In this document: positions 18,343-45,317 of the stretch, piece after piece
Layout: every line of letters begins with the position of its first letter
How positions within the stretch are numbered: the stretch's first letter is position 1
Made by a program: the position numbers and the translations under genes
DNA from: an uncultured Thermoleophilia bacterium
Lineage (GTDB): Bacteria > Actinomycetota > Thermoleophilia > RBG-16-64-13
Assembly (NCBI GenBank): GCA_963772095.1
Contig: CAVYVU010000013.1
Span: 39,358-103,357, forward strand
Direction: 5' to 3'
DNA: 64,000 nucleotides
The notes under the pieces: generated by a model
The model's database searches: none
What the model was told of the DNA's origin: nothing
The model's input: the letters and a program-made list of their open reading frames with translations, nothing else

Positions 18343-18360
18343 GACTGTATCTTATTATAC

Positions 18361-18379: not shown

Positions 18380-18507
18380 CTCTTGCGGTTTTTCTACCGC
18401 ACACTCGGCCTCGCCAGGGTATGCCTTTGGTCCGGGGTCTAGCCTATGCTCTGCACCGAAATCCTTGGAGTTCTGGCCATCGGTGACCTTTCGCACAACC
18501 TCTGTCG

Positions 18508-18537
18508 TTGACATGCATTGGAGGCGAGTGCTATAGG
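18508..18537 (+). promoter_or_regulatory. Sigma70-type promoter of the SDR pair
   Basis: TTGACA (18508-18513), 18-nt spacer, TGc-TATAGG (extended -10). Confidence 0.5.
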
Positions 18538-18653
18538 TCAGTCAATGCTGGCAGGACCAAGTGGAATGGCAGACACTTCGTCAATTTGAGCCAGATAATT
18601 CCCCGGGCTGCCTGAGCACATTCTCGCTTCCGATTTGGAAAGGAGATGGGGAG

Positions 18654-28047: not shown

Positions 28048-29544
28048 TCACCTGCTCACCCCCGGGGCTGGCGAGTCTCGAGCGGCCGCGGGTCGATTCC
28101 TGTAGGCAGCCACGAACATCAAGAACCGCCAGACATCGGAGAACGTGGATGCCAGCCCGAGCGAGACGCGGATAGTGTTGGGCACCTTGCCGGTGGCATC
28201 CTCGATTGCTCTCTGGCACTCTCTCAGGCTCATCGCCATCCGAAGGTCGGGGAAGCAGCGCTGCATGTCTTCCTGGGTAATGTTGTGCGCCACCTCGCCG
28301 GCGCCAGGGTTGCAGAAACATCCAGTGCGGATGGAGATGCGCTGGCGACCGGCGGCCACCTCAACCTCGGAGACGTCGTGCGGCCGACCGCTGGGGTCGA
28401 GAAGATGCAGCGCAATGGTCGCGCCACGACGATCCATGTCAGTCGGCCCAAAGATGCGCACCACTGGCCCGCCCTCGTCATGACGCATGCGCTGCAGCTC
28501 GTCGAGGAGCCAGCCGGTCAGCAAGCGCGTGCGCGTGTGTATGGTTTCAATGCCGACGCGCTCCAGGTGACGTAGCCCGATGGTGACGGCCGGCACACCG
28601 AGATAGTCCACCGTACCATCCTCGAAGCCGGCTGCGCCGGGGGCGAGATGGTACCAGCTCTCGCGCTGGACCGATGCCACCGTGATAGTTCCGCCGGCGA
28701 ACCACGGGCGCCGCAGCTTCGCTAGCTTCTCGCGACGCACGATTAACGCCCCGACGCCGGTCGGATATCCGAACATCTTGTAGAAGGAGAGCACGACGTA
28801 GTCTGGCTTGACTGCCCCCAGATCGAGGCCGTTGGTCGGCACATAGCCAGCACAGTCCAGCAGAACGTCCCAGCCTAGAGACTGTGCTTCGGCGACCCAG
28901 CCCAGCGGATGCTGCACGCCGCTGAAGTTGGACTGGGCCGGATAGGCGAAAAGATGATCCGGTCTCGATCCAGCTTCACGGAGTCCGCTCCTAAGCAGAT
29001 CCTCGTCCAAGCGCAAGTCTGGCATGCGGACGGGCACGTAGTTGACGGCTGCACCTTTCCGGCGTGCGAACTCACGGATGCCGTTCACGGAATTGTGGTT
29101 GTCATAGGTCAAGAGATAGACGGAGCCGGGACGGAACGGGTACGCCTCGCCCACCAGCTTCAGAGCGGCGCTGGCATTGGCGCAGAAGACGACCTCGTAC
29201 TCCTCGGCCGCAGCGTTGAAGTATCGGAGTACGGCGCGGCGCGCCTCGGCGACAAGCTCAGAGGAAGCGGCCGACGCCGGATTGGCGGAATGCGGATTGC
29301 CGAGCACGCGGCCTGCGAGCATGTCGTGATGGCAGCGGAGTTGCGACTCTGCGTACAGCCCGCCGCCCATGTAGTCGAGATACGTGTCGCCGAGCTGATC
29401 GAGACGGCCATAGTCGGTCCTGCGCAGATCGTCGAGCGCCGCCGTGGCCCGATAGTCGGGATAGCGCCGAAGGAACTCCTCCTCGGCGCGCTGGAGATCG
29501 CCGGTCGCATACGGCTTTCGATCGTCAGACGGCACCCGACTCAT
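28048..29544 (-). CDS. Class V PLP enzyme, molybdenum-cofactor-sulfurase/NifS-like
   Basis: YLDYMGGG, LGNPHS, DNHNSVNGIRE, AYPAQSNFSG, PLP Lys in SFYKMFGYPTGVGAL, and RTGCFCNPG. Confidence 0.85.
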   Translation of the reverse strand: MSRVPSDDRKPYATGDLQRAEEEFLRRYPDYRATAALDDLRRTDYGRLDQLGDTYLDYMGGGLYAESQLRCHHDMLAGRVLGNPHSANPASAASSELVAEARRAVLRYFNAAAEEYEVVFCANASAALKLVGEAYPFRPGSVYLLTYDNHNSVNGIREFARRKGAAVNYVPVRMPDLRLDEDLLRSGLREAGSRPDHLFAYPAQSNFSGVQHPLGWVAEAQSLGWDVLLDCAGYVPTNGLDLGAVKPDYVVLSFYKMFGYPTGVGALIVRREKLAKLRRPWFAGGTITVASVQRESWYHLAPGAAGFEDGTVDYLGVPAVTIGLRHLERVGIETIHTRTRLLTGWLLDELQRMRHDEGGPVVRIFGPTDMDRRGATIALHLLDPSGRPHDVSEVEVAAGRQRISIRTGCFCNPGAGEVAHNITQEDMQRCFPDLRMAMSLRECQRAIEDATGKVPNTIRVSLGLASTFSDVWRFLMFVAAYRNRPAAARDSPAPGVSR

Positions 29545-29621
29545 CTGCAACACCTCAGTCCCAGCGGCCATGCATCGAGGGACATCTCGTTGTTGTCTTG
29601 GGTTTCCGGTTTTGCTGCTTA

Positions 29622-30596
29622 TCAATCCATGGGGATGGCAAACAGTGACGCCACCCCGCCGGAATGGAGGAACACGATGGTTTCATCATCATTGAAGTAA
29701 CCTTTGGCGCACAGGTCGAGCAGACCGGCAAAGGTCTTGCCCGTGTATACCGGGTCGAGGAAGATGCCTTCGTTTTCAGCCATCAACCTGATCGCCGCGT
29801 TGCCCTGTTCGGACGGCTTGGAATAGCCCGGGCCGACATAATCTTCCATGACAACATCGTCACGGGTCAGCCGGAGCTCTGTTTCCAGAATCTCGCAGGC
29901 GCCGTTCGCCATATCAAAGACCTGTCCCTGGAAATCTTCTTCCGGCGAGACGATGATGCCGGTGACCTTGGCGCCGTTGCCGAACAGCTTGGCGCCCAGA
30001 ACAATGCCGGCGTGCGTACCGCCGGAACCGGCGCAGCAGACGATATGGTCGATCTTCACATCCTGTGCCACGGCCTGTTCCATCATCTCTTTGATGCAGT
30101 TGACGTAGCCGATGCTGCCCAGCGGTGTGGAGGCGCCCACTGGGATGATGTACGGCTTTTTGCCGGCTACGCGCAGTTCGTCAGAGATGTGTTCAATCTC
30201 GGCGTAGACCTCGTCATAATCGTCGCTGTCCACGAACACGACTTTGACTCCCATCAAATCGTCCAGCAGCAGATTGCCTTTCTTTTCCGTGACGCCGCGT
30301 TGTTTCAATACCAAAATCACATCTAGGCCAAGGCGCTTGCAGCACGCCGCTGTTATCGTCGCATGGTTGGACTGGGCGGCACCGGTAGTGATGATCGTAT
30401 CGCAACCTTTTGCCTTCGCGTCAGCCAGAAGGTATTCCAGTTTCCTGACCTTGTTGCCGCCGAGGGCGACGCCGGTCATGTCGTCTCTCTTGATGTAGAC
30501 CAGTTTGCCGCTGACTTTGCTGATATTGTTCAGCTTATAGAAAGGAGTAGGCAAAATGCCTAACTCTAGCTTGGGGATATCGGCTATATCTTTCAG
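29622..30596 (-). CDS. D-cysteine desulfhydrase / ACC deaminase family PLP enzyme
   Basis: IKRDDMTG..LGGNKVRKLEYL, QSNHA, GSGGTHAG, LDPVYTGK, FLHSGG; the frame extends upstream to a CTG at 30596 (KDIADIPKLELGILPTP). Confidence 0.9.
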   Translation of the reverse strand: MKDIADIPKLELGILPTPFYKLNNISKVSGKLVYIKRDDMTGVALGGNKVRKLEYLLADAKAKGCDTIITTGAAQSNHATITAACCKRLGLDVILVLKQRGVTEKKGNLLLDDLMGVKVVFVDSDDYDEVYAEIEHISDELRVAGKKPYIIPVGASTPLGSIGYVNCIKEMMEQAVAQDVKIDHIVCCAGSGGTHAGIVLGAKLFGNGAKVTGIIVSPEEDFQGQVFDMANGACEILETELRLTRDDVVMEDYVGPGYSKPSEQGNAAIRLMAENEGIFLDPVYTGKTFAGLLDLCAKGYFNDDETIVFLHSGGVASLFAIPMD

Positions 30597-30776: not shown

Positions 30777-31253
30777 CTATAGGGGAACCGCCGGGATCGG
30801 TATCCCCCGTGCCCTCATGAGACAGCAAGGATTGTGGATTTCCCGTAAGCGCTTGATCTTACCGTCCTCCATTTCAAACGAGATGATGTAGTGGTTCTCG
30901 TAGATGCGATTCTGATTCAGGTTCATCTTAAGAATCATCTTGCCCCGACCATCACACTCGACGAAAAACATGTTGGGATTCTGGGTTTGGTAGATCTGCG
31001 CGTTGTAGAAGCCCCAATCGGGAAACATCTCGAAGTCGCCCACGGTGTTCCACTCCACCGCAGCTTTCCCAAAGGGCACACAATCCGCCGTAAAAGTCAG
31101 CTCGAAGGCGGCGTTATCAGCGAACAGCGGCGCGCGCTTGTTCCTGCGTTCCGGTCCTCTTAGGGTCATGTAGTACTCGACGGTCTTGAGGTTCTTTTGG
31201 CGCAGTTGTTCATCTTCCAGGCTCAGCGAGAAGCCAGTTGTTGTTCCAGACAT
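30777..31253 (-). CDS. PhzA/PhzB family protein (copy 1)
   Basis: RQKNLKTVEYYM, FPDWGFYN, PNMFFVECDGRG, YENHYIISFEMEDGKIKRLREIHNP, closely following the PhzB pattern. Confidence 0.88.
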   Translation of the reverse strand: MSGTTTGFSLSLEDEQLRQKNLKTVEYYMTLRGPERRNKRAPLFADNAAFELTFTADCVPFGKAAVEWNTVGDFEMFPDWGFYNAQIYQTQNPNMFFVECDGRGKMILKMNLNQNRIYENHYIISFEMEDGKIKRLREIHNPCCLMRARGIPIPAVPL

Positions 31254-31341
31254 GAGACTCCTCCCTTCGTGGTTGTGCGGGCCCTCGCAAGGGAACTGAC
31301 CCTCACGGCTTGACTTCTTGGAGGGGCTCGGTGCTCAGGCG

Positions 31342-32616
31342 TCATAGGACGATGAGTTCCAGTGGGAAATCGCCGAGGATTTGCGGCTCGTCCTCGCGGA
31401 CGATGACAACTCTGGAGGCGTTTAGTGAAACACCGTTTCTTGTGGCCATGTTGTGCCCGATAGCAAGGGAGTGGCCGACCATCAGATCCATGTCTTCCCA
31501 GTCATAGGGGTAGGCGGGTCTGTCGATGGTGTTGATACCGACACCATGGATCTCTGGCAGAAAGACGCCGTGGATGGCGTGGCCTCTGAGCATCGCGTCA
31601 TCGTAGACAAACGGTTCCAAGCCTTTTGACACCTTGAAAGCGTTGATCTTCTGATGAAGCTCCGCGTACTTGGCACCCGGCCTGAGGAGCGAAATCGTGT
31701 AGCACGTCACGTCTTTCGCGTCATCGTATAAGGCTTTGATTTCCTCGCGCGGCTCCTTGAAGAAGAAATAGCGTCTATTGTAGGAGTAGTAGCCGCCGGC
31801 ACCCGGGGATTCAAGCAGCAGTTGCACGATATCGGTATGCTTGAGCCTGTAATCACGCATCAGTTCGATCGTGCTCTCACCTTTGTGATCGCCTCCGACA
31901 CCGCCGATGGGTTCTCCATACTCATCCAGGAAACCGATGATGACCTTGCCGAAAAGGGAAGGATCGGCCCCCCATATCGACAACTGGCGCGTGATATCGC
32001 AATTGATTTCCCAGATTGTGCGGCCGGGATACATGTAGTTGGCGGCGGAAGCAAAGATCTTGTCGTGCAGATGGGTCGCATCGGCGATGCACACGATTTC
32101 CTCTTCGCTTTTGACAGCCTTCATATGCTCGATCTCATTGCTGATGTCGACGATCTCCATGCCTGGGCAAACCGCCGCGAGATAATCGCGAAAGGCGACG
32201 GTGAGGAAGAAGGCGGTCCCGTCGTAGGCAATACGCTTGGCTCCCCTCAGATAGACGCTCATGTCGTCTACACCTGAGTAGGGCTCCCGATCCTTGCGAC
32301 TGTTGCAGGCCTTTACCCCCGGAACTTCAATCAGCTCGCCGTTCGCCGGCAGAATCAATGTCATCGTGTTGCGGAAGCCGTTGAACCCGCTCAGCCAGTA
32401 CATCGTTGACTGGCTCGCAAAGGTGGCTGTGGGGAACCAGCATTGGGCAATCAACAGGTCACAATCCAGCTCCTTGAGCTTCGCCCGTACGAGATCCTGC
32501 CGCCTTCGTATTTCCGCTTCGGAAAAGGGCGCCACATAGGGGACGATGATGCCTCTTTCCATGTTGCCAAAGACGAGCATGTTCGGCCATCTGGCGCCAT
32601 TGAACGTCTCGAGCAT
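31342..32616 (-). CDS. M24 (creatinase/Xaa-Pro peptidase fold) protein, paralog 1
   Basis: Creatinase-N motif FSEAEIRRRQ, KAVKSEEEI, PGRTIWEI, GGYYSYNRR, LRPG, IHGVG; start at 32616 after AGGGAGG. Confidence 0.8.
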   Translation of the reverse strand: MLETFNGARWPNMLVFGNMERGIIVPYVAPFSEAEIRRRQDLVRAKLKELDCDLLIAQCWFPTATFASQSTMYWLSGFNGFRNTMTLILPANGELIEVPGVKACNSRKDREPYSGVDDMSVYLRGAKRIAYDGTAFFLTVAFRDYLAAVCPGMEIVDISNEIEHMKAVKSEEEIVCIADATHLHDKIFASAANYMYPGRTIWEINCDITRQLSIWGADPSLFGKVIIGFLDEYGEPIGGVGGDHKGESTIELMRDYRLKHTDIVQLLLESPGAGGYYSYNRRYFFFKEPREEIKALYDDAKDVTCYTISLLRPGAKYAELHQKINAFKVSKGLEPFVYDDAMLRGHAIHGVFLPEIHGVGINTIDRPAYPYDWEDMDLMVGHSLAIGHNMATRNGVSLNASRVVIVREDEPQILGDFPLELIVL

Positions 32617-32726
32617 CTTCCCCTCCCTTACCTGCCAAGCTGTGCTTTGCGCCGCTCTCAAGTTTCTTCAACCATGGAAGGAAATCCGTTCACCGACCGA
32701 CTGAGCGAGGACGCGGTTTGGAGAGT

Positions 32727-32763
32727 GATCAGTTCGGACTGTCATCGATCAGTTCAGACTGTC
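32727..32763. repeat. 17-bp direct repeat with 20-bp period upstream of M24 paralog 1
   Basis: GATCAGTTCGGACTGTC (32727-32743) and GATCAGTTCAGACTGTC (32747-32763), 16 of 17 identical. Confidence 0.8.
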
Positions 32764-32811
32764 CTGAGGTTCCCAGGGTCAGAGGGGAACCGCGCCCGGT
32801 GATCAAGCCTC

Positions 32812-33306
32812 TCAGAAGCCTTCAGGGATTTCCGCGTCACCACCTGGCCGCATGCAATTGTAGGGATTAAAGACTTCCCGCAAACGCTTAATCTTTCCGT
32901 CCTTCAAAGTGAAGCTGAGCAGATAGTGATTCTCGTAGTAGTGCGGGTCGTCCCATCTAGGGTCGTACCTCATCCCCCTGCCCCGTAGTTCCGCAAACAC
33001 GGTCCATGGATCGTCGGTCGGGAAGATAGTGACATCATAAAAGCCCCAGTCAGGAAAGGCAGAATTCTCCCCTCGTGCAACGTCCGCCTCTCTCTCATCA
33101 TTGACACGGTATGCAAAATTCGGGTTATCGTGCGGACCGCCGCAGAACGTAAGCTCGAATCTGCCGTCGGTGTCATACAGAGCTTTGCGCTTTTCATGAC
33201 GGTCTGGCCCTTCCAGTTTGACAAAGGCCTCCACAGCCGCCACGTTAGCCAGCCTCTGTTCTTCCAGTTCCTCGCTAAGACAGAAGGGCCCGTACTTGTC
33301 AGACAT
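32812..33306 (-). CDS. PhzA/PhzB family protein (copy 2)
   Basis: RLANVAAVEAFV, FPDWGFYD, TDDPWTVFAELRGRG, YYENHYLLSFTLKDGKIKRLREVFNP. Confidence 0.88.
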   Translation of the reverse strand: MSDKYGPFCLSEELEEQRLANVAAVEAFVKLEGPDRHEKRKALYDTDGRFELTFCGGPHDNPNFAYRVNDEREADVARGENSAFPDWGFYDVTIFPTDDPWTVFAELRGRGMRYDPRWDDPHYYENHYLLSFTLKDGKIKRLREVFNPYNCMRPGGDAEIPEGF

Positions 33307-33322
33307 GCCTGCCTCCTCAGCT

Positions 33323-33802
33323 CTACATGACGCGATCGGGCGCAGGGTTCCAGAAAGCCTGATCGAGCTTCATCGGATTCATGAACTCTTTCATTGACTT
33401 GATTCTTCCATCCACTACTACAAACAGAATGAAGAAATGGTTGTCATATTCATGTGGGTCCGTGAACATAGGATTCTTCATCAGACCCTGGCCGTCGCAC
33501 TCTGCGATGAATCTTTCTGGGCTTGGTGTCCTGTAAATCGTTACATTGGAATAGCCAAAATCAGCCCACTTCTTCTGAAGTCTCAACATCTTTTCGCGTA
33601 GAGCCTTTTTGCCCACGGTACGTTCCGGCAAGCAAGATCTCGTGGAGCAAATCTCGCGCATTCCGTCATCGGCAAACAAGCCGAGCCGTTCCTCGATTCG
33701 ATCGGGACCTTTCAAGGCCATGTATTCTTCCACGGTCTTTCGGTTTCTCTCTTGGAGAGACAAGGCTTCGTCGTTCGGACACGCAGCGAGGTTTACAGAC
33801 AC
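33323..33802 (-). CDS. PhzA/PhzB family protein (copy 3)
   Basis: ERNRKTVEEYMALKGPDR, FIAECDGQG, YDNHFFILF..VDGRIKSMKEFMNP; GTG start after AAGGAGG. Confidence 0.88.
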   Translation of the reverse strand: MSVNLAACPNDEALSLQERNRKTVEEYMALKGPDRIEERLGLFADDGMREICSTRSCLPERTVGKKALREKMLRLQKKWADFGYSNVTIYRTPSPERFIAECDGQGLMKNPMFTDPHEYDNHFFILFVVVDGRIKSMKEFMNPMKLDQAFWNPAPDRVM

Positions 33803-33987: not shown

Positions 33988-34677
33988 TCAGAGTGACGCC
34001 CGAAATCTTTCCAGCCCGTTCCGCCAGTGTTCTTCGGTCGCCTTACTTGCGGCGTCCGGATTGTGGTTTCTAAGCGCCTCCAGGATCCGCTCGTGCTCTA
34101 CGATAGATTGAGCAGATGAAGCGCCCCGACCATAGAAGTAGCGGGTGAAACGCGCTCCAAATCGGTCGAGTCGCTTCGCGGCGTCCGCAAGATACTGGTT
34201 CCCGGTCGAGTCCACCACAACCTCATGAAACCGCAGGTCCAGCTTGACCAGAAGATCAAGGTCCAGTCTCTCGACGGCGGACTTGGCCTCCGTGATAATC
34301 GCTTCAATCTCGCCGACTCCATCATCAGTGATCCTCGCGGCGGCGAGTGTCGCGGCAAAGGGTTCGAGCACTTCCAGACATTCAACAGCCATGCCGTACT
34401 CGGAGATATCGAGCCCAGCGACCGTCGTCCCCATCCCGGGTACCCGCTTGACCAGATACTCTTGGGCCAGAAGAAGTAAAGCCTCCCGCAGAGGAGTCCT
34501 CCCGACGCCGAGTTGTTCCGCTAATTGACCTTCGCTAACGATGGTTCCTGGTGGAAGCTCACTACTGACGATCATCGACCTGACGGACTCGAGGACGTCT
34601 TTTGACCGACGAGCCATCCTTTGACGAGACGGAGCTGAACCCACATGAGACGAAAGCGTTTTGGCCATGGCCATCAC
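33988..34677 (-). CDS. GntR family regulator (FCD domain), paralog 1
   Basis: SEGQLAEQLGVGRTPLREAL HTH; DLRFH...GNQYL...EHERILEAL. Confidence 0.92.
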   Translation of the reverse strand: MMAMAKTLSSHVGSAPSRQRMARRSKDVLESVRSMIVSSELPPGTIVSEGQLAEQLGVGRTPLREALLLLAQEYLVKRVPGMGTTVAGLDISEYGMAVECLEVLEPFAATLAAARITDDGVGEIEAIITEAKSAVERLDLDLLVKLDLRFHEVVVDSTGNQYLADAAKRLDRFGARFTRYFYGRGASSAQSIVEHERILEALRNHNPDAASKATEEHWRNGLERFRASL

Positions 34678-34795: not shown

Positions 34796-36511
34796 CTATG
34801 CCTTGATCCAAAGGTTCCTGGTATCCGCGTAGGTAACAATGGGTACGGGTTGGGCGCCCCCGATCTTCTGGCTGTATGCGTCCACTTGATCGGCGTCGAC
34901 CGGGACGACCACCGAGCCGCGATCGTAGATGATCACCTGCATCTGGTGGAACAGGTCTTTACGCTTGGCCGGGTCGGCTTCCGCGCGGGCTTGACTGAAC
35001 AGTGAATTGAACTCCGTGTCGTTGAAGTGTGTGGAGTTGTACGGAGAGTCGGGCAGGAAGCTGAGCGCATACTGTACCGAAAGAGTCTGGGCCGGCCAGA
35101 AGCTGGTCGACGTTTGCCGATTCTTGTACTCCGGACCAAAGTACACCGAGGGATCGAGCTTGTTGACCGTCATCTTGATGCCGGCCGCCTGAGCCTGTTG
35201 AGCATAGGCGGTCGCCAGATCCACGATACTTGGGGCGGTGTTGGCAGTGTTCAGTGCGATCGCAGTCGAGCCTTTGCCTGATTTCTGCATGAGAGACTTC
35301 GCTTGGTCAGGGTCGTAGGCACGCTGGGGCAGGTCGGAAGCATAGTTGGGGTCTGCGGGTCCCGGCATAAGATCGTTGGCCACTTGTGCGTGCCCGGCAA
35401 ATACCTGGTCGACCAACTGCTGACGGTTTGCGGCAAACCTGCACGCCTGGCGGACCTGCGGGTCGGTAAAGGGCTCCTTCTGCACGTTCATGTTGATGGA
35501 GTAGACCGTCGGCGTGTGATACGCGACTACCTGCAGGGACTTGTTGGCCTGGACCACAGCGACCTGCGAGAGGTCGAGGTTGGTTAGGACGTCGACCTGC
35601 CCGCCGACGAGAGCGTTGATCCGCGCGGTGTCGTCAGCGAAGGAGTAGACCACCATGCCGTCAGCATAAGGCTTGCCTTGATCCCAGAATCCATCGTACC
35701 TGGAGAGAGTGGCCTTACTCCCGGGGGCGAAAGTGTCCATTTTGAATGGCCCGGTGCCCACGGGCTTGGCAGGATCGAAGTCCGTCGGGACGATGAACAC
35801 CTGCCACAGCCCTTCGTTCATCATGCTGTCCGGGCTCTTCAGGCGAAAGCGCACAGTCCGGTCGTCGACCTTGTCGATCGCGTTGGGGTCGACCGCGTTG
35901 AGGATGCCCGAGGTGAAGGACCCTTTCGTGAGGGCGCGCTTGAACGAGAAGATGACGTCATCCGCGGTGACTGGCTTACCGTTGTGGAAGGTAACCCCCT
36001 GCCGGAGCCGAGCGATCCAACTGGAAGGATTCTCCATCGTGACTTCTTCCGCCAGTGCCAGCTGAAAAGCGAGCGAGCTCTCGACGGGAGGCGGGGCCAG
36101 CAGCTGGTCGTACATCGAGAATATGAGAGTATTCGCCGTCATGGTCGACGCGATGTTGTTCGGGTCCGCCGTGTCCGCGCTGTTGCCTATGCACCCGATG
36201 AGAAGCTGACCGCCTTTGACAGGGCCGGCGGCCGCGGCCGTCGTGGTTGGACCCGCAGCGGTCGTGGTAGGACCGGCACCAGTCGTCGTGGGGCCGGCGG
36301 TGACAGTCGTCGGCGCCCCGGTGGTAGTTGTCGTTCCCGCGTTTCCACAGCCGGCTAGAAAACCCGCGCCGCCAAGCCCGAGAGCCACCGCGCCAGCGCC
36401 AGCAAGCCGCAAGAATTCCCGGCGCGAAGTCTGGCGGACTAGAAAGCTCTGGTCTACTGTTTCTTCCTCCTGATCCTGCCTTTTGTCGAGATGTGTGGGG
36501 TCTGTACTCAT
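34796..36511 (-). CDS. ABC transporter substrate-binding lipoprotein (DppA/NikA family 5), Tat-exported
   Basis: SRREFL twin-Arg and lipobox LAGC; GPTTT 7-residue repeat linker; LRQGVTFHNGKPVTADDVIFS, GTGPF, DPQVRQA. Confidence 0.92.
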   Translation of the reverse strand: MSTDPTHLDKRQDQEEETVDQSFLVRQTSRREFLRLAGAGAVALGLGGAGFLAGCGNAGTTTTTGAPTTVTAGPTTTGAGPTTTAAGPTTTAAAAGPVKGGQLLIGCIGNSADTADPNNIASTMTANTLIFSMYDQLLAPPPVESSLAFQLALAEEVTMENPSSWIARLRQGVTFHNGKPVTADDVIFSFKRALTKGSFTSGILNAVDPNAIDKVDDRTVRFRLKSPDSMMNEGLWQVFIVPTDFDPAKPVGTGPFKMDTFAPGSKATLSRYDGFWDQGKPYADGMVVYSFADDTARINALVGGQVDVLTNLDLSQVAVVQANKSLQVVAYHTPTVYSINMNVQKEPFTDPQVRQACRFAANRQQLVDQVFAGHAQVANDLMPGPADPNYASDLPQRAYDPDQAKSLMQKSGKGSTAIALNTANTAPSIVDLATAYAQQAQAAGIKMTVNKLDPSVYFGPEYKNRQTSTSFWPAQTLSVQYALSFLPDSPYNSTHFNDTEFNSLFSQARAEADPAKRKDLFHQMQVIIYDRGSVVVPVDADQVDAYSQKIGGAQPVPIVTYADTRNLWIKA

Positions 36512-36790: not shown

Positions 36791-37342
36791 CTAGGTCCTC
36801 TCGGCCGATTCCGCCGCGACTGCTGCAGCTGCCTCTCCAATGGCGATGTCCCAGTTCCGCATGTCGCCGTCAAAAGAAGCCCGCGTGATGTCACCGTTGA
36901 AGTACTCGGAAAAACGCGAGATCTTATCTCCCTCGACCTCCATGAAGACCACGTAGTCGTTGGAGTAGACGTTGCCTTTGCTCGGGCCGAGCAACACCTG
37001 GTTCCAACTCTTGCTCTTGTAGACAAAGAGCGCTGGGTTCTCAGTGGTGTGCATCTCAAGCCAGAGACAATCGTGATTGCCAAAGACACGCATGACCTTG
37101 TAGTACTCTTCCTTGATGGCTTCAGGGCCGATCTTCTGCATGCCGTCGTGTCGGTAGGGTGTCTCGAGGATCCCATCGGGAGTCATCATGTCGGCAAAGC
37201 CATCGACGTCAAACCGATGCCAGCGCTCCAGGAATCGGATGCAAACATCAAGATTCTTGCGTCGCTCAGGATCTAGGGGTCCGATTGTGCTCGGGATTGC
37301 CTGGAAATCGGTTGACAGTGGTTCTTTGTGGCTGCTCTTCAC
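36791..37342 (-). CDS. SnoaL/NTF2-like protein (PhzA/B-related), tandem copy A
   Basis: RKNLDVCIRFL, ADMMTPDGILETP, VYSNDYVVFMEVEGDKISRFSEYFN. Confidence 0.82.
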   Translation of the reverse strand: MKSSHKEPLSTDFQAIPSTIGPLDPERRKNLDVCIRFLERWHRFDVDGFADMMTPDGILETPYRHDGMQKIGPEAIKEEYYKVMRVFGNHDCLWLEMHTTENPALFVYKSKSWNQVLLGPSKGNVYSNDYVVFMEVEGDKISRFSEYFNGDITRASFDGDMRNWDIAIGEAAAAVAAESAERT

Positions 37343-37372: not shown

Positions 37373-37915
37373 CTAGCTATTCTGTTGCGCCGCAAGGAAT
37401 GCCGCCGCCTCTTGTTCGGCGATCTTCATGTTATCGAGGTCGTTGTCGAAGGCTTCCATCAGAACCGTGGGGTTGAAGTACTCAGAAAAGCGCGCGATCT
37501 TCTCACCCCGTACCTCCATGAACACGACGTAATCGTTCGAGTACACATTGCCCTTGCTTGGCCCGAACATGACTCTGTTCCAGCTCTTACTCTTGTAGAT
37601 GAATGTGGCGGGATCGTTGGTGGTCCACATCTTCAGCCAGAGACAGTCGTGCTCGCCGAAGAGAGTCATGGTGGTGTAGTAGGCCTTCTTCGCCTCTTCG
37701 GGCCCCACGTGCTGCTCTCCGCCCAGGTACGGTGTCTCGAGAATCCCGTCGGCAGTCATCATCCCGGCGAAGCCGTCTACGTCAAAACGGTGCCAGAGCT
37801 CTAGGAAGCGAATACAAACGTCGAGATTCTTTCGTCGCCCGGGATCCAAGGGGCCGAGCGCGCTAGGGATAGCACCGAAATCTGTGGAGAGCGGCTCTTT
37901 GTAGCTTCCCTTCAC
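37373..37915 (-). CDS. SnoaL/NTF2-like protein (PhzA/B-related), tandem copy B
   Basis: Near-duplicate of copy A (KEPLSTDF, YKSKSWN, GPSKGNVYSNDYVVFMEV); GTG start at 37915 after GAGGAGG. Confidence 0.82.
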   Translation of the reverse strand: MKGSYKEPLSTDFGAIPSALGPLDPGRRKNLDVCIRFLELWHRFDVDGFAGMMTADGILETPYLGGEQHVGPEEAKKAYYTTMTLFGEHDCLWLKMWTTNDPATFIYKSKSWNRVMFGPSKGNVYSNDYVVFMEVRGEKIARFSEYFNPTVLMEAFDNDLDNMKIAEQEAAAFLAAQQNS

Positions 37916-38030
37916 TTGACTACACCTCCTCAGGGATTCCGAGATTCCCAACCGCCTTCCCAGCCCACGGAAGGTGGTGCGCGCTCTTCTCCGATCGTGT
38001 CGCTGACGTTCATGACTGCTTTATCCGTTC

Positions 38031-39923
38031 CTAGCCCCCGGCGAGTACCTCTTCCTCTAGGTGTTCGGATGTGTCGAAGCCTGCACGCGTTTCCACAAGT
38101 ACCTTGGTGTAAGCGTTTTGCGGTCGCTCAAATATCTCGGCAGTGGGTGCGCGTTCAACGATCACGCCGCCGGCAAGGACTGCAACCTCAGTGGCCAGGG
38201 AACGCACCAGGGCGAGCTGGTGGGTGATAAAGACCAAGCCGACGCCTTCCTCTTCGAGGAGTCTTCGCAAAAGCTCGATGATCGAGGCCTGTACGGACAC
38301 GTCCAAGGCGGAAGTGACCTCATCACAGATCAGGTAGCGCGGTCGGCAGATCAACGCTCGAGCCAGTGCGACACGCTGGCGCTCACCACCGCTCAGTTGA
38401 TGGGGGTAGCGGTCAACGTATGAGACCGACAGGGAAACCTTGGCGAGAGTCTCGCCGACTGCAGCACGCGCGCCGGCGCCGCCGAAGAAGAGCTTGTGCG
38501 GTTGCGCGACGATGTCGAAGACCGTCTTCCGCGGGTTGAGGGATGCAAAGGGATTCTGAAATACATATTGGATTGCTTGGCGCGTCGAGGCGGGCCGACG
38601 TTGAACCTCCCGCTCTAGAGTCTGGCCTTCGAGCCGGACCTCCCCTCGATAGCGCCCGTGTAGCCCTGCAAGGCATCGGGCCAAGGTCGTCTTCCCGCTC
38701 CCCGACTCGCCGACAACTGCAAGACAGTCACCGCGGATGACATCCAGGCTGATTCCACGGAGAATCTGTCGCGCCCCATAGCTCGCGTACAGATCAGCGG
38801 CCACAAGACCCTTCAATTCCTCCTGTCTGGTGGACACGGCAAGTACCTGAGGAGGTCGGGACCGCAACTGTTCGACCAATTCCACCCGCAGGCACCTCAC
38901 CTGGTGAGTGGGCGATATGAATCCCGTTTCAGGCAGGACTTGGAAGCAGGCTTCATCCGCGATCTCACATCGAGGTGCAAAGGCGCAGCCTGGCGCACGT
39001 TCAAAGGGTGACGGGGCCTGGCCTGGTATCCCTACCAAGGCGTGACGGCCCGACCCTTCGGGCACTGCGTCAAGCAGCCTTTTCGTATACGGATGTCTCG
39101 GGTTGTCAATGACCTCCCTGATCGGCCCTGACTCGACTACTGTTCCCGCGTACATGACGGCCAGCCTATCCGCGACCGACGAGACGACAGCCAAGTCGTG
39201 ACTCACCCAGACAGCCGCGACCCGGTGACGAGTGCACATGTCGCGCACCAAACGAACGATATGTCCTTGAGTGATCACATCGAGCCCCGTGGTGGGCTCA
39301 TCTAGAATCACGAGAGATGGTCCGCAGGAGAAGGCAGCAGCAATCAATACCCGTTGCTGTTGGCCACCCGACAACTGGTGCGGGTAGCGCCGAAGGAAGG
39401 CGGCGTCGCTTGGCAGCAGCACTTCCTCCATGAGCTGTCTGAGGCGCTGACGTCGGTCGGCTCGGTCGCGCCCGACATGGTGAACACGGAGCATCTCATC
39501 GAGTTGTCGGCCGATTCTTCGCCCCGGGTTGAGTGCGGTGCCAGGGTCTTGCGAGACGTAGGAGACGACTCGGCCACGAACCTGCCTCAATTCCCGAGGC
39601 GCCAACGTCAGAAGTTCCTTGGGCCCGATGATGACCTCACCGGCCGCGATTCGCAGCCCACGCTGCGCGAAACCAAGCAGCGCGAGCGCCAGAGTCGTTT
39701 TGCCGCACCCTGACTCACCGACCAGCCCCAGGATCTCACCCGGAGCGATGACGAAAGAGACTGGGGCAACAATTCCGGTTCCGTCAGTGGTAGTAACACT
39801 CAGGACGTTTGCGCAAGCTGCACCCCCATGGCCTTCCTCGGGGATCGGCTCACCGCGACCATCCATGGCACCCGCCGATTTGCCGACGACCCCGGACAAG
39901 TCTGTGTCTTTGGTACTCATCAT
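38031..39923 (-). CDS. Fused double-ATPase subunit (DppD/DppF-like) of a peptide/nickel ABC importer
   Basis: Two Walker A motifs ([16 protein letters not shown]), two YPHQLSGG signatures, oligo_HPY motif HPYT; start at 39923/39920 coupled to the permease stop. Confidence 0.92.
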
Positions 39924-40789
39924 CACTTGATCGAAGCGTCCGCGCGTGACAAGACCCGCGCTAGGCCATCTGAAATGAGGTTCGTGCCCACGGCCAGAGC
40001 AGCGATCGCGATGACCGGAGCAACCACGCCCCAGGGCTGAATCGACAGTCCGCCTTTGTTCTCGAATACCATCAGACCCCAGTCCGGATGTGGGGGCTGG
40101 GTACCGAAACCCAGGAAGTTGAGGGTCGCCACTATGGCGATCGCCACGGTGAACCGAATCGGCAGTTCGACGAGAAACGTTCCGGTCACGTTGGGGAGCA
40201 CCTCCGAAAACAGGATCTTGAAGCGTTTCATCCCCATCGCCTCGGCTGCCCTGATGTAGTCCCTTTGGTAGACATCCATGGTCGCCGCTCGCATTACCCG
40301 GGCCGTGCCGGGGATCTGTACGAGATCCACAATGATGATGAGCAGCCACCAAGCGGTACCCAGACGCGTAAGCAGGAGCAGCGCGAACACCAGGGGCGGA
40401 AAGACCATGATCACGTCGAGACATCGCATTATCAGGTCGCCACGCCAGGTCTTCGAACTTCCCGCAATGAGGCCCAGAAGGAGCCCGATGGCTACGGCAG
40501 CAACGCTCGCAAGAAAGGCTACGATCAGAAGCGCCTTGCCGCCCGCCAGAAACCGGCTGAACACGTCGCGACCCTGGTAATCCGTCCCAAGCAATGTGTT
40601 GGACGAGGGCGCCGAGTACGACTTCTGAATGAACTGTGTGGGGTCGTGGGGCGCGGCAAACTGCCCAAAAGCGGCGATCAAGATGACGATTCCGGCCAGG
40701 GCGATTCCCAACCAGATCTTCTTAGGCCATCGAGTTGCCGTTACTCTGTCGCCAGCCTTACCGCGACGTCGCACGACCGGCCACTTCAT
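39923..40789 (-). CDS. Peptide ABC permease (DppC-like)
   Basis: LLGTDYQGRDVFSR, YIRAAEAMG...ILFSEVLPN, FLGFG..PP.PDWG. Confidence 0.92.
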   Translation of the reverse strand: MKWPVVRRRGKAGDRVTATRWPKKIWLGIALAGIVILIAAFGQFAAPHDPTQFIQKSYSAPSSNTLLGTDYQGRDVFSRFLAGGKALLIVAFLASVAAVAIGLLLGLIAGSSKTWRGDLIMRCLDVIMVFPPLVFALLLLTRLGTAWWLLIIIVDLVQIPGTARVMRAATMDVYQRDYIRAAEAMGMKRFKILFSEVLPNVTGTFLVELPIRFTVAIAIVATLNFLGFGTQPPHPDWGLMVFENKGGLSIQPWGVVAPVIAIAALAVGTNLISDGLARVLSRADASIK

Positions 40790-41832
40790 CGAAGCCCGGT
40801 CCTTACGCGCGGATTCACCAGCACCGCCAAAACGTCGGCGGCCAGAGTTGCCAGCACATAGACGCCTGCGATAGAAACTGTAAGGATCTGTGCAACCGGC
40901 AAGTCGCGATACTGAATTGCGCTGAAGAGCGACGAACCGATTCCTGGGTAGGAAAAGACCGTCTCGACCGCCACCGCTCCGCCGGCCAGGTAGCCTATTT
41001 GAAGTGCCACCACTTGGGCTGTCGGAGCGACCACGTTGGGAAGTCCGTGCTGCAAGATGACTCTCCACTCGGGTATCCCGTTGAGCCGGGCCTGGGTGAC
41101 GTACGGGCTATCGAGCGCCTCGATCATCGCGCCTCGGATCATATAGGCGACATACGGGAACACGCCCACGCCCAAGGAAACTGCGGGCAATAGCACCAAC
41201 GAGAACTGACTCCAGATACTTTTCGCCGGGTCGATGAGCGACACCGGTGGTAGTAGATGGACGACGCTGGTGGCAAAGACGATGATGAGGGTGAGCCCGG
41301 TGACGAAAGGCGGAATGGCTGTCATGACGAGCCCTACGCCCGACACGAGCCGATCGAGTATGCCACCTCGTCGGACCGCGCATGCTATCCCAACCAACAG
41401 AGCCAGGGGGATCGACAAGAGACAGGCGACCAGCATAAGAGCGAGCGTGTTGCGAACGCGCGGGCCCAGATAGGTGCTCACCGGTTGTCTGTTGGCCAAG
41501 GACGTACCGAGGTTGCCCGTCACGACCCCGCCTATCCAAGAGACGTATTGAACGGCAACCGGGCGGTTCAGACCCAACTGCTGACGCAGCAGTTGCACCT
41601 GTTCTGGTGTGGCGTTCTGGCCCAAGATCGCCCGTGCCGTGTCACCCGGAAGACCCTGGGTGGCAAAGAAGACGAGCAACGTAACAACCCACAGGATGAT
41701 CACCGCGTAGAGACACCGAAACAGAATAAGCCGGGCGAACGGCAATCTGCGTCCGCGCTCGGCCGAACGGCCCTCAGATAGCTCCTCTAGAACTGAGGAA
41801 CCGTCGCCAACCGGTCCGGCTTCGATAGCCAT
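40786..41832 (-). CDS. Peptide ABC permease (DppB-like)
   Basis: LPGDTARAILG, GLNRP..VQY..W...GNLGTS, YVTQARLNG...HGLPN, VETVFSYPGIG. Confidence 0.92.
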   Translation of the reverse strand: MAIEAGPVGDGSSVLEELSEGRSAERGRRLPFARLILFRCLYAVIILWVVTLLVFFATQGLPGDTARAILGQNATPEQVQLLRQQLGLNRPVAVQYVSWIGGVVTGNLGTSLANRQPVSTYLGPRVRNTLALMLVACLLSIPLALLVGIACAVRRGGILDRLVSGVGLVMTAIPPFVTGLTLIIVFATSVVHLLPPVSLIDPAKSIWSQFSLVLLPAVSLGVGVFPYVAYMIRGAMIEALDSPYVTQARLNGIPEWRVILQHGLPNVVAPTAQVVALQIGYLAGGAVAVETVFSYPGIGSSLFSAIQYRDLPVAQILTVSIAGVYVLATLAADVLAVLVNPRVRTGLR

Positions 41833-42253
41833 GCCCCTCCCCACGGTTCCGCCTCGATGTGCAAGATTCTCTCTACTCCCACCGAGGCGATAATGCAAAT
41901 CCCGCGAGCGACTCCAATCGGTCAGTACTCTGGCACGGCTGGATGCTTCTGGCCGTACCCGAAATATCCAACCTAATCAATTGATATCATGACGCTTGAT
42001 ACAAAACAAATCCTGTTTTCATTCGACATGATGCATTTTTGTAGTCGACAACAATAATGGCAATGTGATATATGTGAGAGACACGACCGTGCCGAGAGCC
42101 GGGCGAGGCCACGACAATGATCGGGAGGACGGCTTACACGCACCAGACCTCCGGCGCCGTGACTCAACCCCCCGACGAGTGGCTCTCGCGATGATTCCGA
42201 CGGTTGCGCTAACACACGGCGTCGCAAGCTCTTGTCAGGAGGAGAGTGCGCCC

Positions 42254-43858
42254 ATGGGAACCGAGACCACGCCCTTCAGGAATGAGCCTCCCGTCGACTT
42301 CTCGCTTGAGTCGAGTCGCCAAGCGATGGCTGAAGCACTCGACGTCAGACGCAGACACCTTGGGGGCCATCACCCCCTGATCGTGGACGGCAAAGACGTG
42401 ACCAGCCTTACATCAACCACCTCGGTGAACCCTGCGCATGCCCGTCAGATCATCGGAACGGTATCAGCGGCTGGCCCGAGAGAGGTCGACGCCGCCTTGA
42501 ACGTTGCGCGACAGGCTTTTTCTGCATGGCGCGATACGCTGCCCAGCGAGCGGGCCACCATCATGTTCAAGGCCGCCGCCATCATGCGAGCGCGACGCTT
42601 TCAGCTCTCTGCGCTTCTGGTGCTCGAGGCCGGGAAGCCGTGGATCGAGGCCGACGCGGACACGTGTGAGGCCATTGATTTCCTCGAGTACTACGCTCGC
42701 GAGATGCTTCGTCTTGAAAGACCTTCGCGCCTCGGCCGTGACTCTGCTGAGAGGGGTTTCTACTTCTACGAGCCTCGCGGCGTGGCCGTCGTCATCGCTC
42801 CGTGGAATTTCCCGCTGGCGATTGCCACCGGAATGACGTCGGCGGCTCTTGTGACCGGCAACACGGTCGTCTTCAAGCCTGCCTCTCCCACTTCCGTCTT
42901 GGGCGCCGAGATGGTTCACATATTTCATGAAGCGGGCGTGCCCGTCTCTGCTCTGAGCTTCCTTCCGTGTGTGGGGAAGGACACTGGCGCGATGCTGGTG
43001 CGAGATCCCCGGGTCGACCTGATTGCCTTCACCGGGAGCCTAGAGGTGGGTCTGTTCATCCTCCGCGAAGCCGGCTTGGTGCGCCCAGGGCAGCGCAGCA
43101 TCAAGAAAGTGGTCGCCGAGATGGGCGGCAAGAACGCAATCATCGTAGACTCAGACGCAGACCTCGATTCAGCCGCGGCGGGAGTCGTACGCTCGGCCTT
43201 CTTCTACTCGGGGCAAAAGTGCTCAGCCTGTAGTCGCGTAATCGTCCACGAGGCCGTTTACAAACCGTTTCTAGAGCGCCTGCTGGATCAGACCTCCTCC
43301 CTCGCAGTGGGCGACCCAGCCGACCAAGGGACGCAAGTAGGCCCCGTAATTTCTGCAGAAGCGCGCAGCAAGATCCTCGCGTACATCGAGAGAGGGAAGG
43401 GGGAGGCGCGGCTGGTCCTTCCGTCCAATGGCGAAGAGCCGCAATCGGACGGTTTCTTTGTACGACCCCATGTCTTTGTCGACGTCTCCCGGGGCGCGAC
43501 GATTGCTCAAGAGGAGATCTTTGGTCCTGTCCTAGCCGTATTCAAGACCGCGGACTTCGATCAGGCGCTCGAGTTGGCGCTGAGCGTGCCCTACGCACTA
43601 ACAGGGGGAGTCTACTCGCGGGATCCGCACAATCTTCGGAGAGCTTTCCGTGAGTTCCGGGTGGGCAATCTCTATATCAACCGCCATATCACTGGAGCCT
43701 TGGTCGGGCTTCACCCCTTCGGTGGCTCGCGAATGAGCGGTGTAGGGTCAAAGGCCGGCGGTCCAGACTACTTGCTCCAGTTCCTTGAACCTCGAGTGGT
43801 TACCGAGAGCCTCACGGACATCGACATGGACTTGGTCGGAAGCCTCTATTCTGCCTGA
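42254..43858 (+). CDS. pruA: L-glutamate gamma-semialdehyde (P5C) dehydrogenase, stand-alone RocA/PruA type
   Basis: FRNEP, EADADTCEAIDFLEYY, PWNFPLAI, AEMGGKN, GQKCSACSR, EEIFGP, GSKAGGPDYL; no proline dehydrogenase domain. Confidence 0.88.
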   Translation: MGTETTPFRNEPPVDFSLESSRQAMAEALDVRRRHLGGHHPLIVDGKDVTSLTSTTSVNPAHARQIIGTVSAAGPREVDAALNVARQAFSAWRDTLPSERATIMFKAAAIMRARRFQLSALLVLEAGKPWIEADADTCEAIDFLEYYAREMLRLERPSRLGRDSAERGFYFYEPRGVAVVIAPWNFPLAIATGMTSAALVTGNTVVFKPASPTSVLGAEMVHIFHEAGVPVSALSFLPCVGKDTGAMLVRDPRVDLIAFTGSLEVGLFILREAGLVRPGQRSIKKVVAEMGGKNAIIVDSDADLDSAAAGVVRSAFFYSGQKCSACSRVIVHEAVYKPFLERLLDQTSSLAVGDPADQGTQVGPVISAEARSKILAYIERGKGEARLVLPSNGEEPQSDGFFVRPHVFVDVSRGATIAQEEIFGPVLAVFKTADFDQALELALSVPYALTGGVYSRDPHNLRRAFREFRVGNLYINRHITGALVGLHPFGGSRMSGVGSKAGGPDYLLQFLEPRVVTESLTDIDMDLVGSLYSA

Positions 43859-43934: not shown

Positions 43935-45317
43935 ATGAGCCGGACAGCCGAAGCTCGGCCCCGAGCGACCGCCGATCTTGCGCACCACGAAATCGTTCGG
44001 ACCTGGTGGCCGCTAGCTGGCAGCTGGCTCCTGATGAGCATTGAAGGCCCGGCGATGGCCGCCATCATCGCCCGCCTTGCTCACCCCGAAATAAACCTTG
44101 CAGCATACGGCGGTCTGGTCTTTCCCATCGCCGTGTTGATCGAGGCCCCCATAATGATGATCTTGGCTGCCTCCACAGCCCTGAGCCGTGATTGGCTATG
44201 CTACGCAAAGCTGCGTAGGTTCACGCATGTACTTGGGGCTGGTCTGACAGCGATTCACGTAATCCTGGTGGCCACGCCTGTGTACTACTTTGTGGCCCGA
44301 GGGCTGGTACACGCGCCCGAGGAGATCATCAGACCCGCGCGGCTGGGTCTTCTCATCGTGATCCCCTGGACGTGGTCGATCGCCTACCGCCGCTTCGGCC
44401 AGGGAGTCCTCATCCGCCTTCGCCGTTCCATCTGGGTAGGCACAGGAACCGTGATAAGACTGGCAGCTGAAGTCGCGGTTCTAGCCGTAGGGTACGCCAT
44501 CGGCTCGCTTGCCGGCGTAGCGGTTGCAGCCCTGGCCATGAATGCGGGAGTGATGAGTGAAGCACTCTTTGTCTTCATTGTCCTACGGAAACCGCTGAAG
44601 ACTGAATTGAAGCCCGCACCTATACTTCAGCGGCCGTTCACCACGCGGGAGCTCATACGCTTCTACGTCCCACTCGCCTTGACATCGACGATAGCGCAGA
44701 TCTGCGCCCCTATCGGCAGCGCGGCCATAAGCCGCATGCCCAGAGCTCTCGACTCTTTGGCAACGTGGCCGGTGGTGAGCGCGATGAGACTCCTGGCGAG
44801 CAGCCCGGGTCTTGCTTACAACGAAACCGTAGTAGCCCTCGTTGAGCGACCGAAATCATCTCAAAGGCTATGGAGATTCAGTCTCACCCTGAGTGCGTTC
44901 GCCACGGCCGGTCTCGTATTGCTCATCACTCCACCAGTGGCGAACCTCGTATTCAAGAGCCTCCTTCATCTACCTCCAGCGGTTGCCCTACTTAGCCATC
45001 GCAGCCTGTGGTTCCTCTTGCCGATGCCGACGATCGCGGTACTTCAAAGTTGGTATCAGGGCGTAATCCTACACAGCGGAAGGACGCGGAGCATCATCGA
45101 ATCGGTTCTGCTCTTCACGGTGGTCATCGCCAGTTTCCTGGCTGCTGGGGTGAGTTGGGGGATCTTCACCGGTATATACGTGGCAGCAGGAACGTTCACA
45201 GTTGGCGATATCGTGCGGACGGTATGGCTGTGGATCCGCAGCAGAAGTGCCCGCCGATCACTCGCGGCCAGAGATTCGGAAACGATCGAGGCTGTTGATT
45301 CGGCCGCCGCGAGCTGA
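43935..45317 (+). CDS. MATE/MOP-superfamily (ANKH-like) membrane transporter
   Basis: WWPLAGSWLLMSIEGP..AAIIARL..PEINLAAYG; two-fold internal symmetry (FYVPLALT...ISRMP...LATW); about 12 TM segments. Confidence 0.65.
   Translation: MSRTAEARPRATADLAHHEIVRTWWPLAGSWLLMSIEGPAMAAIIARLAHPEINLAAYGGLVFPIAVLIEAPIMMILAASTALSRDWLCYAKLRRFTHVLGAGLTAIHVILVATPVYYFVARGLVHAPEEIIRPARLGLLIVIPWTWSIAYRRFGQGVLIRLRRSIWVGTGTVIRLAAEVAVLAVGYAIGSLAGVAVAALAMNAGVMSEALFVFIVLRKPLKTELKPAPILQRPFTTRELIRFYVPLALTSTIAQICAPIGSAAISRMPRALDSLATWPVVSAMRLLASSPGLAYNETVVALVERPKSSQRLWRFSLTLSAFATAGLVLLITPPVANLVFKSLLHLPPAVALLSHRSLWFLLPMPTIAVLQSWYQGVILHSGRTRSIIESVLLFTVVIASFLAAGVSWGIFTGIYVAAGTFTVGDIVRTVWLWIRSRSARRSLAARDSETIEAVDSAAAS

Follow-up and report, generated by a model that had tools for sequence, protein, structure and literature searches.

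What do proteins of the PhzA/B family do at a locus that has no phenazine operon? The question is raised by three genes between positions 30,777 and 33,802 of a 64,000-nucleotide stretch of DNA (hereafter, the window) from an uncultured Thermoleophilia bacterium (assembly GCA_963772095.1, contig CAVYVU010000013.1, positions 39,358 to 103,357 of the forward strand). The first-pass annotation described their products, here PhzAB1, PhzAB2, and PhzAB3, as divergent PhzA/B paralogs that keep the catalytic Glu and the basic pocket of PhzB, lack its His73/Ser77 pair, and may act on other substrates or as heterodimers in non-phenazine chemistry. In this study, we compared the three proteins with PhzB, with their family, and with the gene context of their orthologs. 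Our reading, to which we give a probability of about 0.55, is that they are functional non-phenazine members of the family, encoded in an acquired island of about 22 kb whose products import and degrade a carboxylated nitrogen compound. The clue to function lies in the conserved association with an ATP-binding cassette (ABC) importer and with creatinase-like M24 proteins.

The three open reading frames (ORFs) and the short strings first quoted from them (RLREIHN, RLREVFN, SMKEFMN, GPERRNKR, GPDRHEKR, and GPDRIEER) are all present as given. Each of the three matches a single Pfam family, PF03284 (PHZA_PHZB). Each score exceeds the gathering score of 24 bits (Table 1), and profile positions of about 10-155 of 162 are covered. 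None of the NCBIfam models matches PhzAB1, PhzAB2, or PhzAB3. The sole strong PDB matches found by phmmer were Pseudomonas aeruginosa PhzB2 (3ff0; E-values of 2e-28 for PhzAB1, 3e-16 for PhzAB2, and 4e-21 for PhzAB3) and Burkholderia PhzA/B (3b4o and 21 further entries). AlphaFold2 models of PhzAB1 and PhzAB3 were built on alignments of 25-27 sequences. The PhzAB1 model had a mean predicted local distance difference test (pLDDT) score of 82.9 and a predicted template-modelling (pTM) score of 0.80, and its best Foldseek match in the PDB was 3ff0 (E 1.2e-13). The PhzAB3 model (pLDDT 87.3, pTM 0.83) likewise matched 3ff0 best (E 1.3e-15, TM-score 0.79-0.81). For these models, Foldseek ranks 1-17 were taken entirely by chains of PhzB or PhzA/B (E 1e-12 to 1e-15, TM-score 0.68-0.83), and an E-value gap of 6-7 orders of magnitude separated them from YesE, putative polyketide cyclases, and limonene-epoxide hydrolase. 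The resemblance to PhzA/B thus stands, PhzB being the nearest solved fold for the two modelled proteins. We conclude that the window genes encode non-phenazine PhzA/B (PF03284, NTF2-like) members with a predicted PhzB fold, seen for the two modelled paralogs.

Residues were compared in PhzB numbering, using pairwise phmmer alignments to 3b4o and 3ff0 and a MAFFT/hmmalign table. The 3b4o chain has a 20-residue tag, so its residues 93, 97, and 160 are native His73, Ser77, and Glu140. In BcPhzB, the ligand is contacted by His73, Ser77, Arg38, Arg41, Glu140, Asp57, Trp76, Gln147, Arg160*, and Pro164*; the first five names, as used in the first-pass annotation, agree with this source (PMC11998002). 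The window proteins are 30-37% identical to PhzB of Burkholderia lata/cepacia and Pseudomonas (3b4o and 3ff0), the enzyme that condenses two aminoketones to the phenazine tricycle. They share with it Glu140, which is Glu in all three as had been claimed, and also Arg41, Glu103, Tyr120, Asn122, His123, and Asn143. The absence of the His73/Ser77 pair was confirmed by both types of alignment, with Asn and Asp at the two positions in PhzAB1, Val and Glu in PhzAB2, and Lys and Leu in PhzAB3. No alignment made places a His at position 73, and for PhzAB1 none can, since its only two His residues (H121 and H140) lie outside the alpha3 segment.

The claim of a conserved basic pocket held in part. Arg41 is found in all three proteins when the family is aligned (phmmer, pairwise, puts the Arg of PhzAB3 one position later), and Arg38 is found in the three window copies. 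Arg38 is not conserved among the orthologs of PhzAB3 (R/C/F/Q/L/H), and Asp57, Trp76, and Gln147 of PhzB are replaced in all three window proteins. The C-terminal tails end at about PhzB position 158-160, some 4-6 residues earlier than in PhzB, so Arg160* and Pro164* have no counterpart. No window paralog has Arg at position 160; the tails are group-specific and keep an invariant Pro154. At position 52, the window proteins have Glu and PhzB has Gly.

The missing pair looks different when the whole family is considered. A profile of the three groups formed by the paralogs and their orthologs was searched against 1.84 billion cluster representatives and matched 725 proteins at E<=1e-3, 177 at E<=1e-10, and 27 at E<=1e-30. 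The best 150 representatives and close homologs were cut into 176 domains and aligned to one hidden Markov model (HMM), a sample that is biased toward the query profile. Glu occupied position 140 in 151 of the 176 domains and position 103 in 118; the counts were 123 for Arg41, 124 for Tyr120, 111 for Asn122, and 127 for Asn143. Position 52 was Glu in 80 domains and Gly in 32. His73 and Ser77 occurred together in only 7 of the 174 non-reference domains, which does not support the earlier framing of the window proteins as lacking a family-defining pair. Six of these seven have G/A at position 52 and one has D. A FastTree phylogeny of the 176 domains groups six of the seven with both PDB references in a single small, derived clade; the seventh (P0076) falls elsewhere, and PhzAB1, PhzAB2, and PhzAB3 fall in three separate clades outside the phenazine clade. 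Because the pair is almost confined to a small derived clade that contains the PhzB structures, it appears, despite the bias of the sample, to have been gained by the phenazine enzymes, not lost here. On this sample, absence of the pair is the ordinary state of PF03284. Glu52 also occurs in YesE, in SnoaL_2 proteins of Hyphomonas, and in both SnoaL_2 products of the window, and for this reason looks ancestral. A scan of a genome collection for relatives gave four distant Hyphomonas loci only, which were set aside: they encode SnoaL_2 proteins in an unrelated cluster of short-chain dehydrogenase/reductase, enoyl-CoA hydratase, and dioxygenase genes.

In 31 of the 173 best family matches, more than one stretch is matched, and 29 of these (about 17% of the 173) carry two or three near-complete PhzA/B domains per chain. 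Examples are P0030, P0032-P0035, and P0038, among others; P0032 has three domains. These tandem fusions suggest heterodimers. In P0054 (708 aa), a phenazine-type domain is located at the C-terminus, behind about 540 other residues.

Each window paralog has its own orthologs on metagenome contigs. They are 69-86% identical in group 1 (PhzAB1), with two more at 50%, 53-96% identical in group 2 (PhzAB2), and 61-80% identical in group 3 (PhzAB3), and the three paralogs are about 28-40% identical to one another. The groups differ in the alpha3 segment. Group 1 has W-[N/H]-x-[V/I]-x-[D/E] and group 2 has G-E-N ahead of FPDW, and the signature of group 3 is [K/R]-M-x-R-x-x-x-K-W-A-[D/E]-F. In the 25 sequences that make up the three groups, N21, G33, R40, E51, T90, P93, G102, G104, Y118, N120, F126, E138, N141, P142, and P154 are invariant (Glu51, Glu138, and Arg40 are in the numbering of paralog 1). 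Between the paralogs and their orthologs, the proportion of nonsynonymous differences (pN) was 0.13-0.28 and that of synonymous differences (pS) was saturated at 0.69-0.99 (PhzAB3, pN 0.15-0.28 and pS 0.76-0.93). These values rule out pseudogenes or decaying duplicates, and each paralog represents an old orthologous group kept by purifying selection. Two group 1 orthologs, P0007 and P0008 (69-70% identical), carry His73 and Met142; in the window PhzAB1 and the remaining group 1 orthologs, position 73 is Asn or Lys and position 142 is His. It is suggestive, if statistically weak, that His142 of group 1 may be a relocated His73: in the family sample, 21 domains have His at 73 only, 13 at 142 only, and none at both, with a chance overlap of about 1.5 and essentially one swap event.

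The genomic setting is not a phenazine one. No phz operon (phzD/E/F/G) is present at the locus, where the neighbours are M24, GntR, ABC, and pyridoxal 5'-phosphate (PLP) enzyme genes. The metagenome-assembled genome (MAG; 2.73 Mb, 66% complete) has no PF03284 genes other than these three. Its sole PhzF-family gene lies on contig C14, among creatininase, major facilitator superfamily (MFS), aldehyde:ferredoxin oxidoreductase, and iron-containing alcohol dehydrogenase genes. With three PF03284 genes that have no phz neighbours and a lone PhzF-family gene on another contig, a true phenazine pathway was rejected for this locus. The creatininase-family gene stands immediately beside that PhzF-family gene (G000 contig C14:79293-80327; L026 6294-7328).

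No PF03284 gene was found in any of 60 relatives of the same genus, family, or class. A match was present in only 8 of the 400 other genomes sampled across the phylum and was never close, with a best score of 117 bits vs 225-240 bits for the genes of the window. Similarity at the DNA level to two genomes of the same genus ends at about 26.66 kb and restarts at about 49.25 kb; between these points, the two genomes have only paralog-level matches to the pyrroline-5-carboxylate (P5C) dehydrogenase, the ProC-like gene, and the membrane protein. The GC content is 0.545-0.549 at 30-34 kb vs about 0.61 elsewhere. As judged from the sequence, this island of about 22 kb was acquired horizontally. Outside it, positions 52000-56000 differ from the rest of the window, with a GC content of 0.73 and an AT skew of +0.38 to +0.41.

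Related loci on other contigs show which neighbours are conserved. They contain two modules. The first consists of the importer, SnoaL-like genes, and a group 3 gene followed by a group 2 gene, with gaps of 14-40 nt between the latter two in five instances; in the window, PhzAB2 starts 16 nt downstream of PhzAB3. The order of group 3 before group 2 is kept in L011 (twice), L012, and L013. L013 reads permease, ATPase, SnoaL (87% identical), family-5 solute-binding protein, PhzAB3 (70%), and PhzAB2 (73%), and in both L013 and L011 the gene immediately upstream of the PhzAB3-PhzAB2 pair is the solute-binding protein ortholog. The second module is a group 1 gene with a creatinase-like M24 gene, and group 1 orthologs adjoin M24 in L001, L003, and L011. 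L003 (ENA contig_68800) has M24a (85%), PhzAB1 (70%), an M24b-like gene, a ProC-like gene (55%), a class-IV aminotransferase, GntR (60-69%), the membrane protein (56%), and PhzAB2 (62%). L001, in a CtsR/McsB/ClpC neighbourhood, has an MFS gene, PhzAB1 (76%), and M24. L012 (8619-14889) has PhzAB3 (75%), PhzAB2 (66%), and M24b (85%); M24b orthologs are 81-85% identical in L011 and L012. L011 (ENA ERZ25039515 contig_120589, 4285-19334) contains six PF03284, two SnoaL_2, two M24, and two Amidohydro_2 genes and a cupin gene, grouped about the same ABC system as in the window.

L011 looks like an expanded version of the island, and one of its PF03284 copies (8084-8521) has Lys replacing Glu140. Beside the L012 module lie genes for a glycyl-radical enzyme and its activase, three RraA-like genes, and members of the AcnX (cis-3-hydroxyproline dehydratase) family, neighbours that further hint at hydroxyproline/proline-type chemistry. 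M24a/M24b-type genes always travel with PhzA/B-like genes. Neither the importer and M24 linkage nor the two distant SnoaL_2 paralogs with a Glu52/Glu140 core had been mentioned in the first-pass annotation. The coordinates of the window genes are given in Table 1.

Table 1. Genes of the acquired island, in order of position in the window.
Feature	Position	Strand	Basis
Class-V aminotransferase-fold protein	28048-29625	-	Aminotran_5
D-cysteine-desulfhydrase/1-aminocyclopropane-1-carboxylate (ACC)-deaminase-family PLP enzyme	29622-30554	-	TIGR01275 316.6 bits, cut-off 289.4
PhzAB1 (group 1)	30777-31253	-	158 aa; PF03284 113.7 bits; E52/N73/D77/E140/H142
M24a, creatinase/prolidase-fold protein	31342-32661	-	Creatinase_N and Peptidase_M24
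PhzAB2 (group 2)	32812-33306	-	164 aa; PF03284 74.6 bits; E52/V73/E77 (GEN motif)/E140
PhzAB3 (group 3)	33323-33802	-	159 aa; PF03284 94.1 bits; E52/K73/L77/E140; WADF replacing FPDW
GntR/FCD regulator 1	33988-34677	-	Pfam GntR and FCD
Family-5 solute-binding protein (Dpp/Opp/Nik type)	34796-36511	-	SBP_bac_5 251 bits
SnoaL_2 NTF2-like gene	36791-37342	-	Pfam SnoaL_2
SnoaL_2 NTF2-like gene	37373-37951	-	Pfam SnoaL_2
ABC importer: fused double ATPase with oligo_HPY, and two permeases	38031-41898	-	Pfam ABC_tran (two), oligo_HPY, BPD_transp_1
L-glutamate gamma-semialdehyde (P5C) dehydrogenase	42065-43858	+	NF002852 663.8 bits, cut-off 648
Polytopic membrane protein, no known family	43935-45317	+	About 460 aa; 12-transmembrane (TM)-like; hydrophobic throughout
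ProC-like reductase, altered substrate loop	45399-46238	-	TIGR00112 192 bits, below cut-off 196.75
GntR/FCD regulator 2	46434-47123	-	Pfam
M24b, second creatinase-like M24	47442-48722	-	Pfam; 54% identical to M24a

The minus-strand run of genes from 41898 to 28048 comprises, in the direction of transcription, the two permeases, the fused ATPase, the two SnoaL_2 genes, the solute-binding protein, the GntR-FCD regulator, PhzAB3, PhzAB2, M24a, PhzAB1, the PLP enzyme, and the aminotransferase-fold protein. The SnoaL_2 genes are unusually placed, inside the importer operon between the ATPase and the solute-binding protein, and their orthologs (64-87% identical) have the same place in L011 and L013. 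They match the PhzA/B-like HMM (E 9.5e-11 and 5e-6), and both products keep the Glu52/Tyr120/Asn122/Glu140/Asn143 core and do not keep Arg38/Arg41. By this match and this shared core, the island holds five members of one NTF2-like clan.

Neither of the two metal-ligand Asp residues is present in M24a, which has L/E and Y there in an alignment to prolidase 5giu; the C-terminal His/Glu/Glu positions of M24a and M24b were read by eye. The best PDB match of the M24a/M24b family profile was creatinase 7yto (8.9e-14), which is likewise without the metal-binding aspartates. M24a and M24b are thus classed, on their alignments, as creatinase-type M24 proteins without metal-binding aspartates. M24a-type genes (E<=1e-20) were not found in any of the 60 relatives. 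Creatinase (creatine amidinohydrolase; 7yto/1chm), the closest solved relative, has Creatinase_N and the M24 pita-bread fold. The similarity is remote, and the NCBIfam models for ectoine hydrolase, prolidase, and methionine aminopeptidase score far under their cut-offs. In the ProC-like protein, the loop TSHSEVDS aligns with TSPGGTT of P5C reductase 5bse. The membrane protein at 43935-45317 has no Pfam, NCBIfam, or PDB match, with ANKH at E 0.27 as the only hit, and may be a transporter of no recognised family. A promoter/terminator scan gave 1 promoter-like site vs 2.9 expected.

How might these parts work together? The three proteins probably have substrates that differ from phenazine precursors and probably form heteromers. 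The earlier proposal of other substrates, heterodimers, and non-phenazine chemistry is supported by the remodelled pocket, the lack of a phenazine context, the conserved pair of group 3 and group 2 genes, and the tandem fusions. PhzB is dimeric, and the long C-terminal stretch of one subunit reaches over to its partner, where it forms a lid on which activity critically depends (PMC3955178, PMC11998002). The most economical reading is that PhzAB3 and PhzAB2 would form a lid-swapped heterodimer, like PhzA/PhzB. A Glu140/Glu52 pair would do the acid/base catalysis; first-strand residues are catalytic in other NTF2-fold enzymes, such as ketosteroid isomerase and limonene-epoxide hydrolase. Arg41, plus Arg38 where present, would clamp the substrate carboxylate. 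The enzymes may make, break, or isomerise a C=N or C=O bond in an intermediate of amino-carbonyl or cyclic-imine type, which the M24 hydrolases could either release or take up. For the product, the next steps might be provided by the altered ProC-like reductase and by P5C dehydrogenase, in a pathway that would feed P5C and glutamate. A fully specified pathway, of a kind not described before, can be offered only tentatively: the group 3 and group 2 heterodimer, the third PhzA/B-like enzyme, the two SnoaL-like relatives, and the metal-free creatinase-like hydrolases would together act on an imported compound, either amidino/guanidino or a cyclic imino acid, and open it, and a pyrroline-type imine other than P5C would be passed through the altered ProC to glutamate.

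Several points weigh against the import and degradation of a carboxylated nitrogen compound by this island. The PLP enzyme and the class-V aminotransferase have no tblastn match in L001-L013, and other enzymes are encoded at related loci in their turn (Amidohydro_2, cupin, AcnX, RraA-like, and glycyl-radical enzymes). With these differences in gene content, the pathway is not uniform. A search of the island's intergenic regions, 11 in number, for a common GntR-type operator or common 9-mers gave nothing that would join its two sub-clusters in a regulon. As the MAG is incomplete, the absence of phz genes holds for the locus, not for the whole genome. No characterised non-phenazine PF03284 member and no pathway of NTF2 and creatinase-like proteins were found in the literature searched. 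Finally, group 3 has lost FPDW, and its Arg38 is variable among orthologs, so it could be a non-catalytic partner.

This last point leads to the first alternative, which is unlikely: at least one paralog, with group 3 the likeliest, may be a non-catalytic partner or ligand-binding subunit that shapes or caps the active site of its heterodimer partner or sequesters a reactive intermediate. Apart from WADF and the variable Arg38, group 3 has a hydrophobic residue at 77, its gene is always immediately upstream of group 2, and Pseudomonas PhzA, suspected of such a role, gives a precedent. However, Glu140, Glu52, Arg41, Tyr120, Asn122, and Asn143 are nearly invariant in group 3, the sole departures being S122 in a divergent L011 copy and G52 in a truncated L011 ORF (P0019). 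Position 73 is a conserved Lys or Arg, and purifying selection on group 3 is as strong as on the other groups.

A second alternative, which we consider quite improbable, is that the proteins are generic NTF2-fold hydrolases, dehydratases, or isomerases of the limonene-epoxide hydrolase, ketosteroid isomerase, or scytalone dehydratase type, with a non-nitrogenous substrate, and that the proline/P5C genes are unrelated neighbours. YesE, limonene-epoxide hydrolase, and polyketide cyclases are the next-best structural neighbours of the window proteins, and some related loci have genes of types usual in the routes for aromatic compounds or sugar acids (Amidohydro_2, cupin, RraA-like, and HpcH aldolase). 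However, those neighbours stand behind PhzB by the E-value gap given above, the ProC-like, GntR, and membrane protein genes are co-conserved with PF03284 and M24 in L003, and the Arg41 clamp and the creatinase-like partners suggest a carboxylated nitrogen compound. Similarity to SnoaL_2/YesE-type proteins (Bacillus subtilis YesE, 1s5a) is found at E 4e-3 by sequence and 1e-6 to 1e-9 by fold. These proteins have in common with the window proteins the F-E-x first-strand motif (Glu52) and the C-terminal R-x-E-x-x-N, but they are without Arg38/Arg41 and without the long C-terminal lid.

A third alternative, that the proteins are biosynthetic condensases which, as PhzB does, dimerise or cyclise an alpha-aminoketone or amino-aldehyde to a dihydropyrazine or other N-heterocycle as a secondary metabolite, is likewise quite improbable: the PhzA/B fold with Glu140 and the Arg pair is kept, and the co-conserved 12-TM membrane protein could be an exporter, but no PhzE/D/F/G or other precursor-making enzyme is nearby, His73, Ser77, and most PhzB ligand contacts are absent, and the layout (two GntR-FCD regulators of repressor type, an ABC importer dependent on a solute-binding protein, hydrolase-fold proteins, and P5C dehydrogenase) is of a catabolic type.

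We return to the proposed functional non-phenazine enzymes of an import and degradation island, and compare them with the known systems. Like PhzB, the window proteins have a C-terminal tail with a conserved Pro, which forms the swapped lid in PhzB, and the genes lie as adjacent pairs like phzA-phzB. Unlike those of PhzB, their surroundings are catabolic, importer-linked, and horizontally acquired, and the proteins branch outside the phenazine clade. Mutations at catalytic and binding positions have led to the suspicion that PhzA is inactive (PMC11998002). Pseudomonas PhzA resembles the window paralogs as a PhzB paralog without the catalytic pair that stands beside an intact-looking paralog, and it gives a precedent for a heterodimer of unequal subunits. 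It is a recent, roughly 70% identical copy within the phz operon. The window paralogs, in contrast, have low mutual identity, their own orthologs, and the Glu/Glu/Arg core in all three.

Members of PF03284 are annotated everywhere as 'phenazine biosynthesis protein A/B', and in our sample only a small clade has the phenazine catalytic pair. The locus described here provides a conserved, mobile gene context for the non-phenazine majority of the family and corrects a misleading annotation. The mobile, conserved module and the Glu52/Glu140 signature in five NTF2-like genes are worth pursuing, and they give a testable handle on E52/E140 PhzA/B-like proteins and on creatinase-like M24 proteins, neither of which has a known function in such a setting. 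His73/Ser77 as a late specialisation of the phenazine enzymes would bear on the evolution of the phenazine pathway. If the fully specified pathway offered above is true, it would give the first function assigned to the large non-phenazine part of PF03284.

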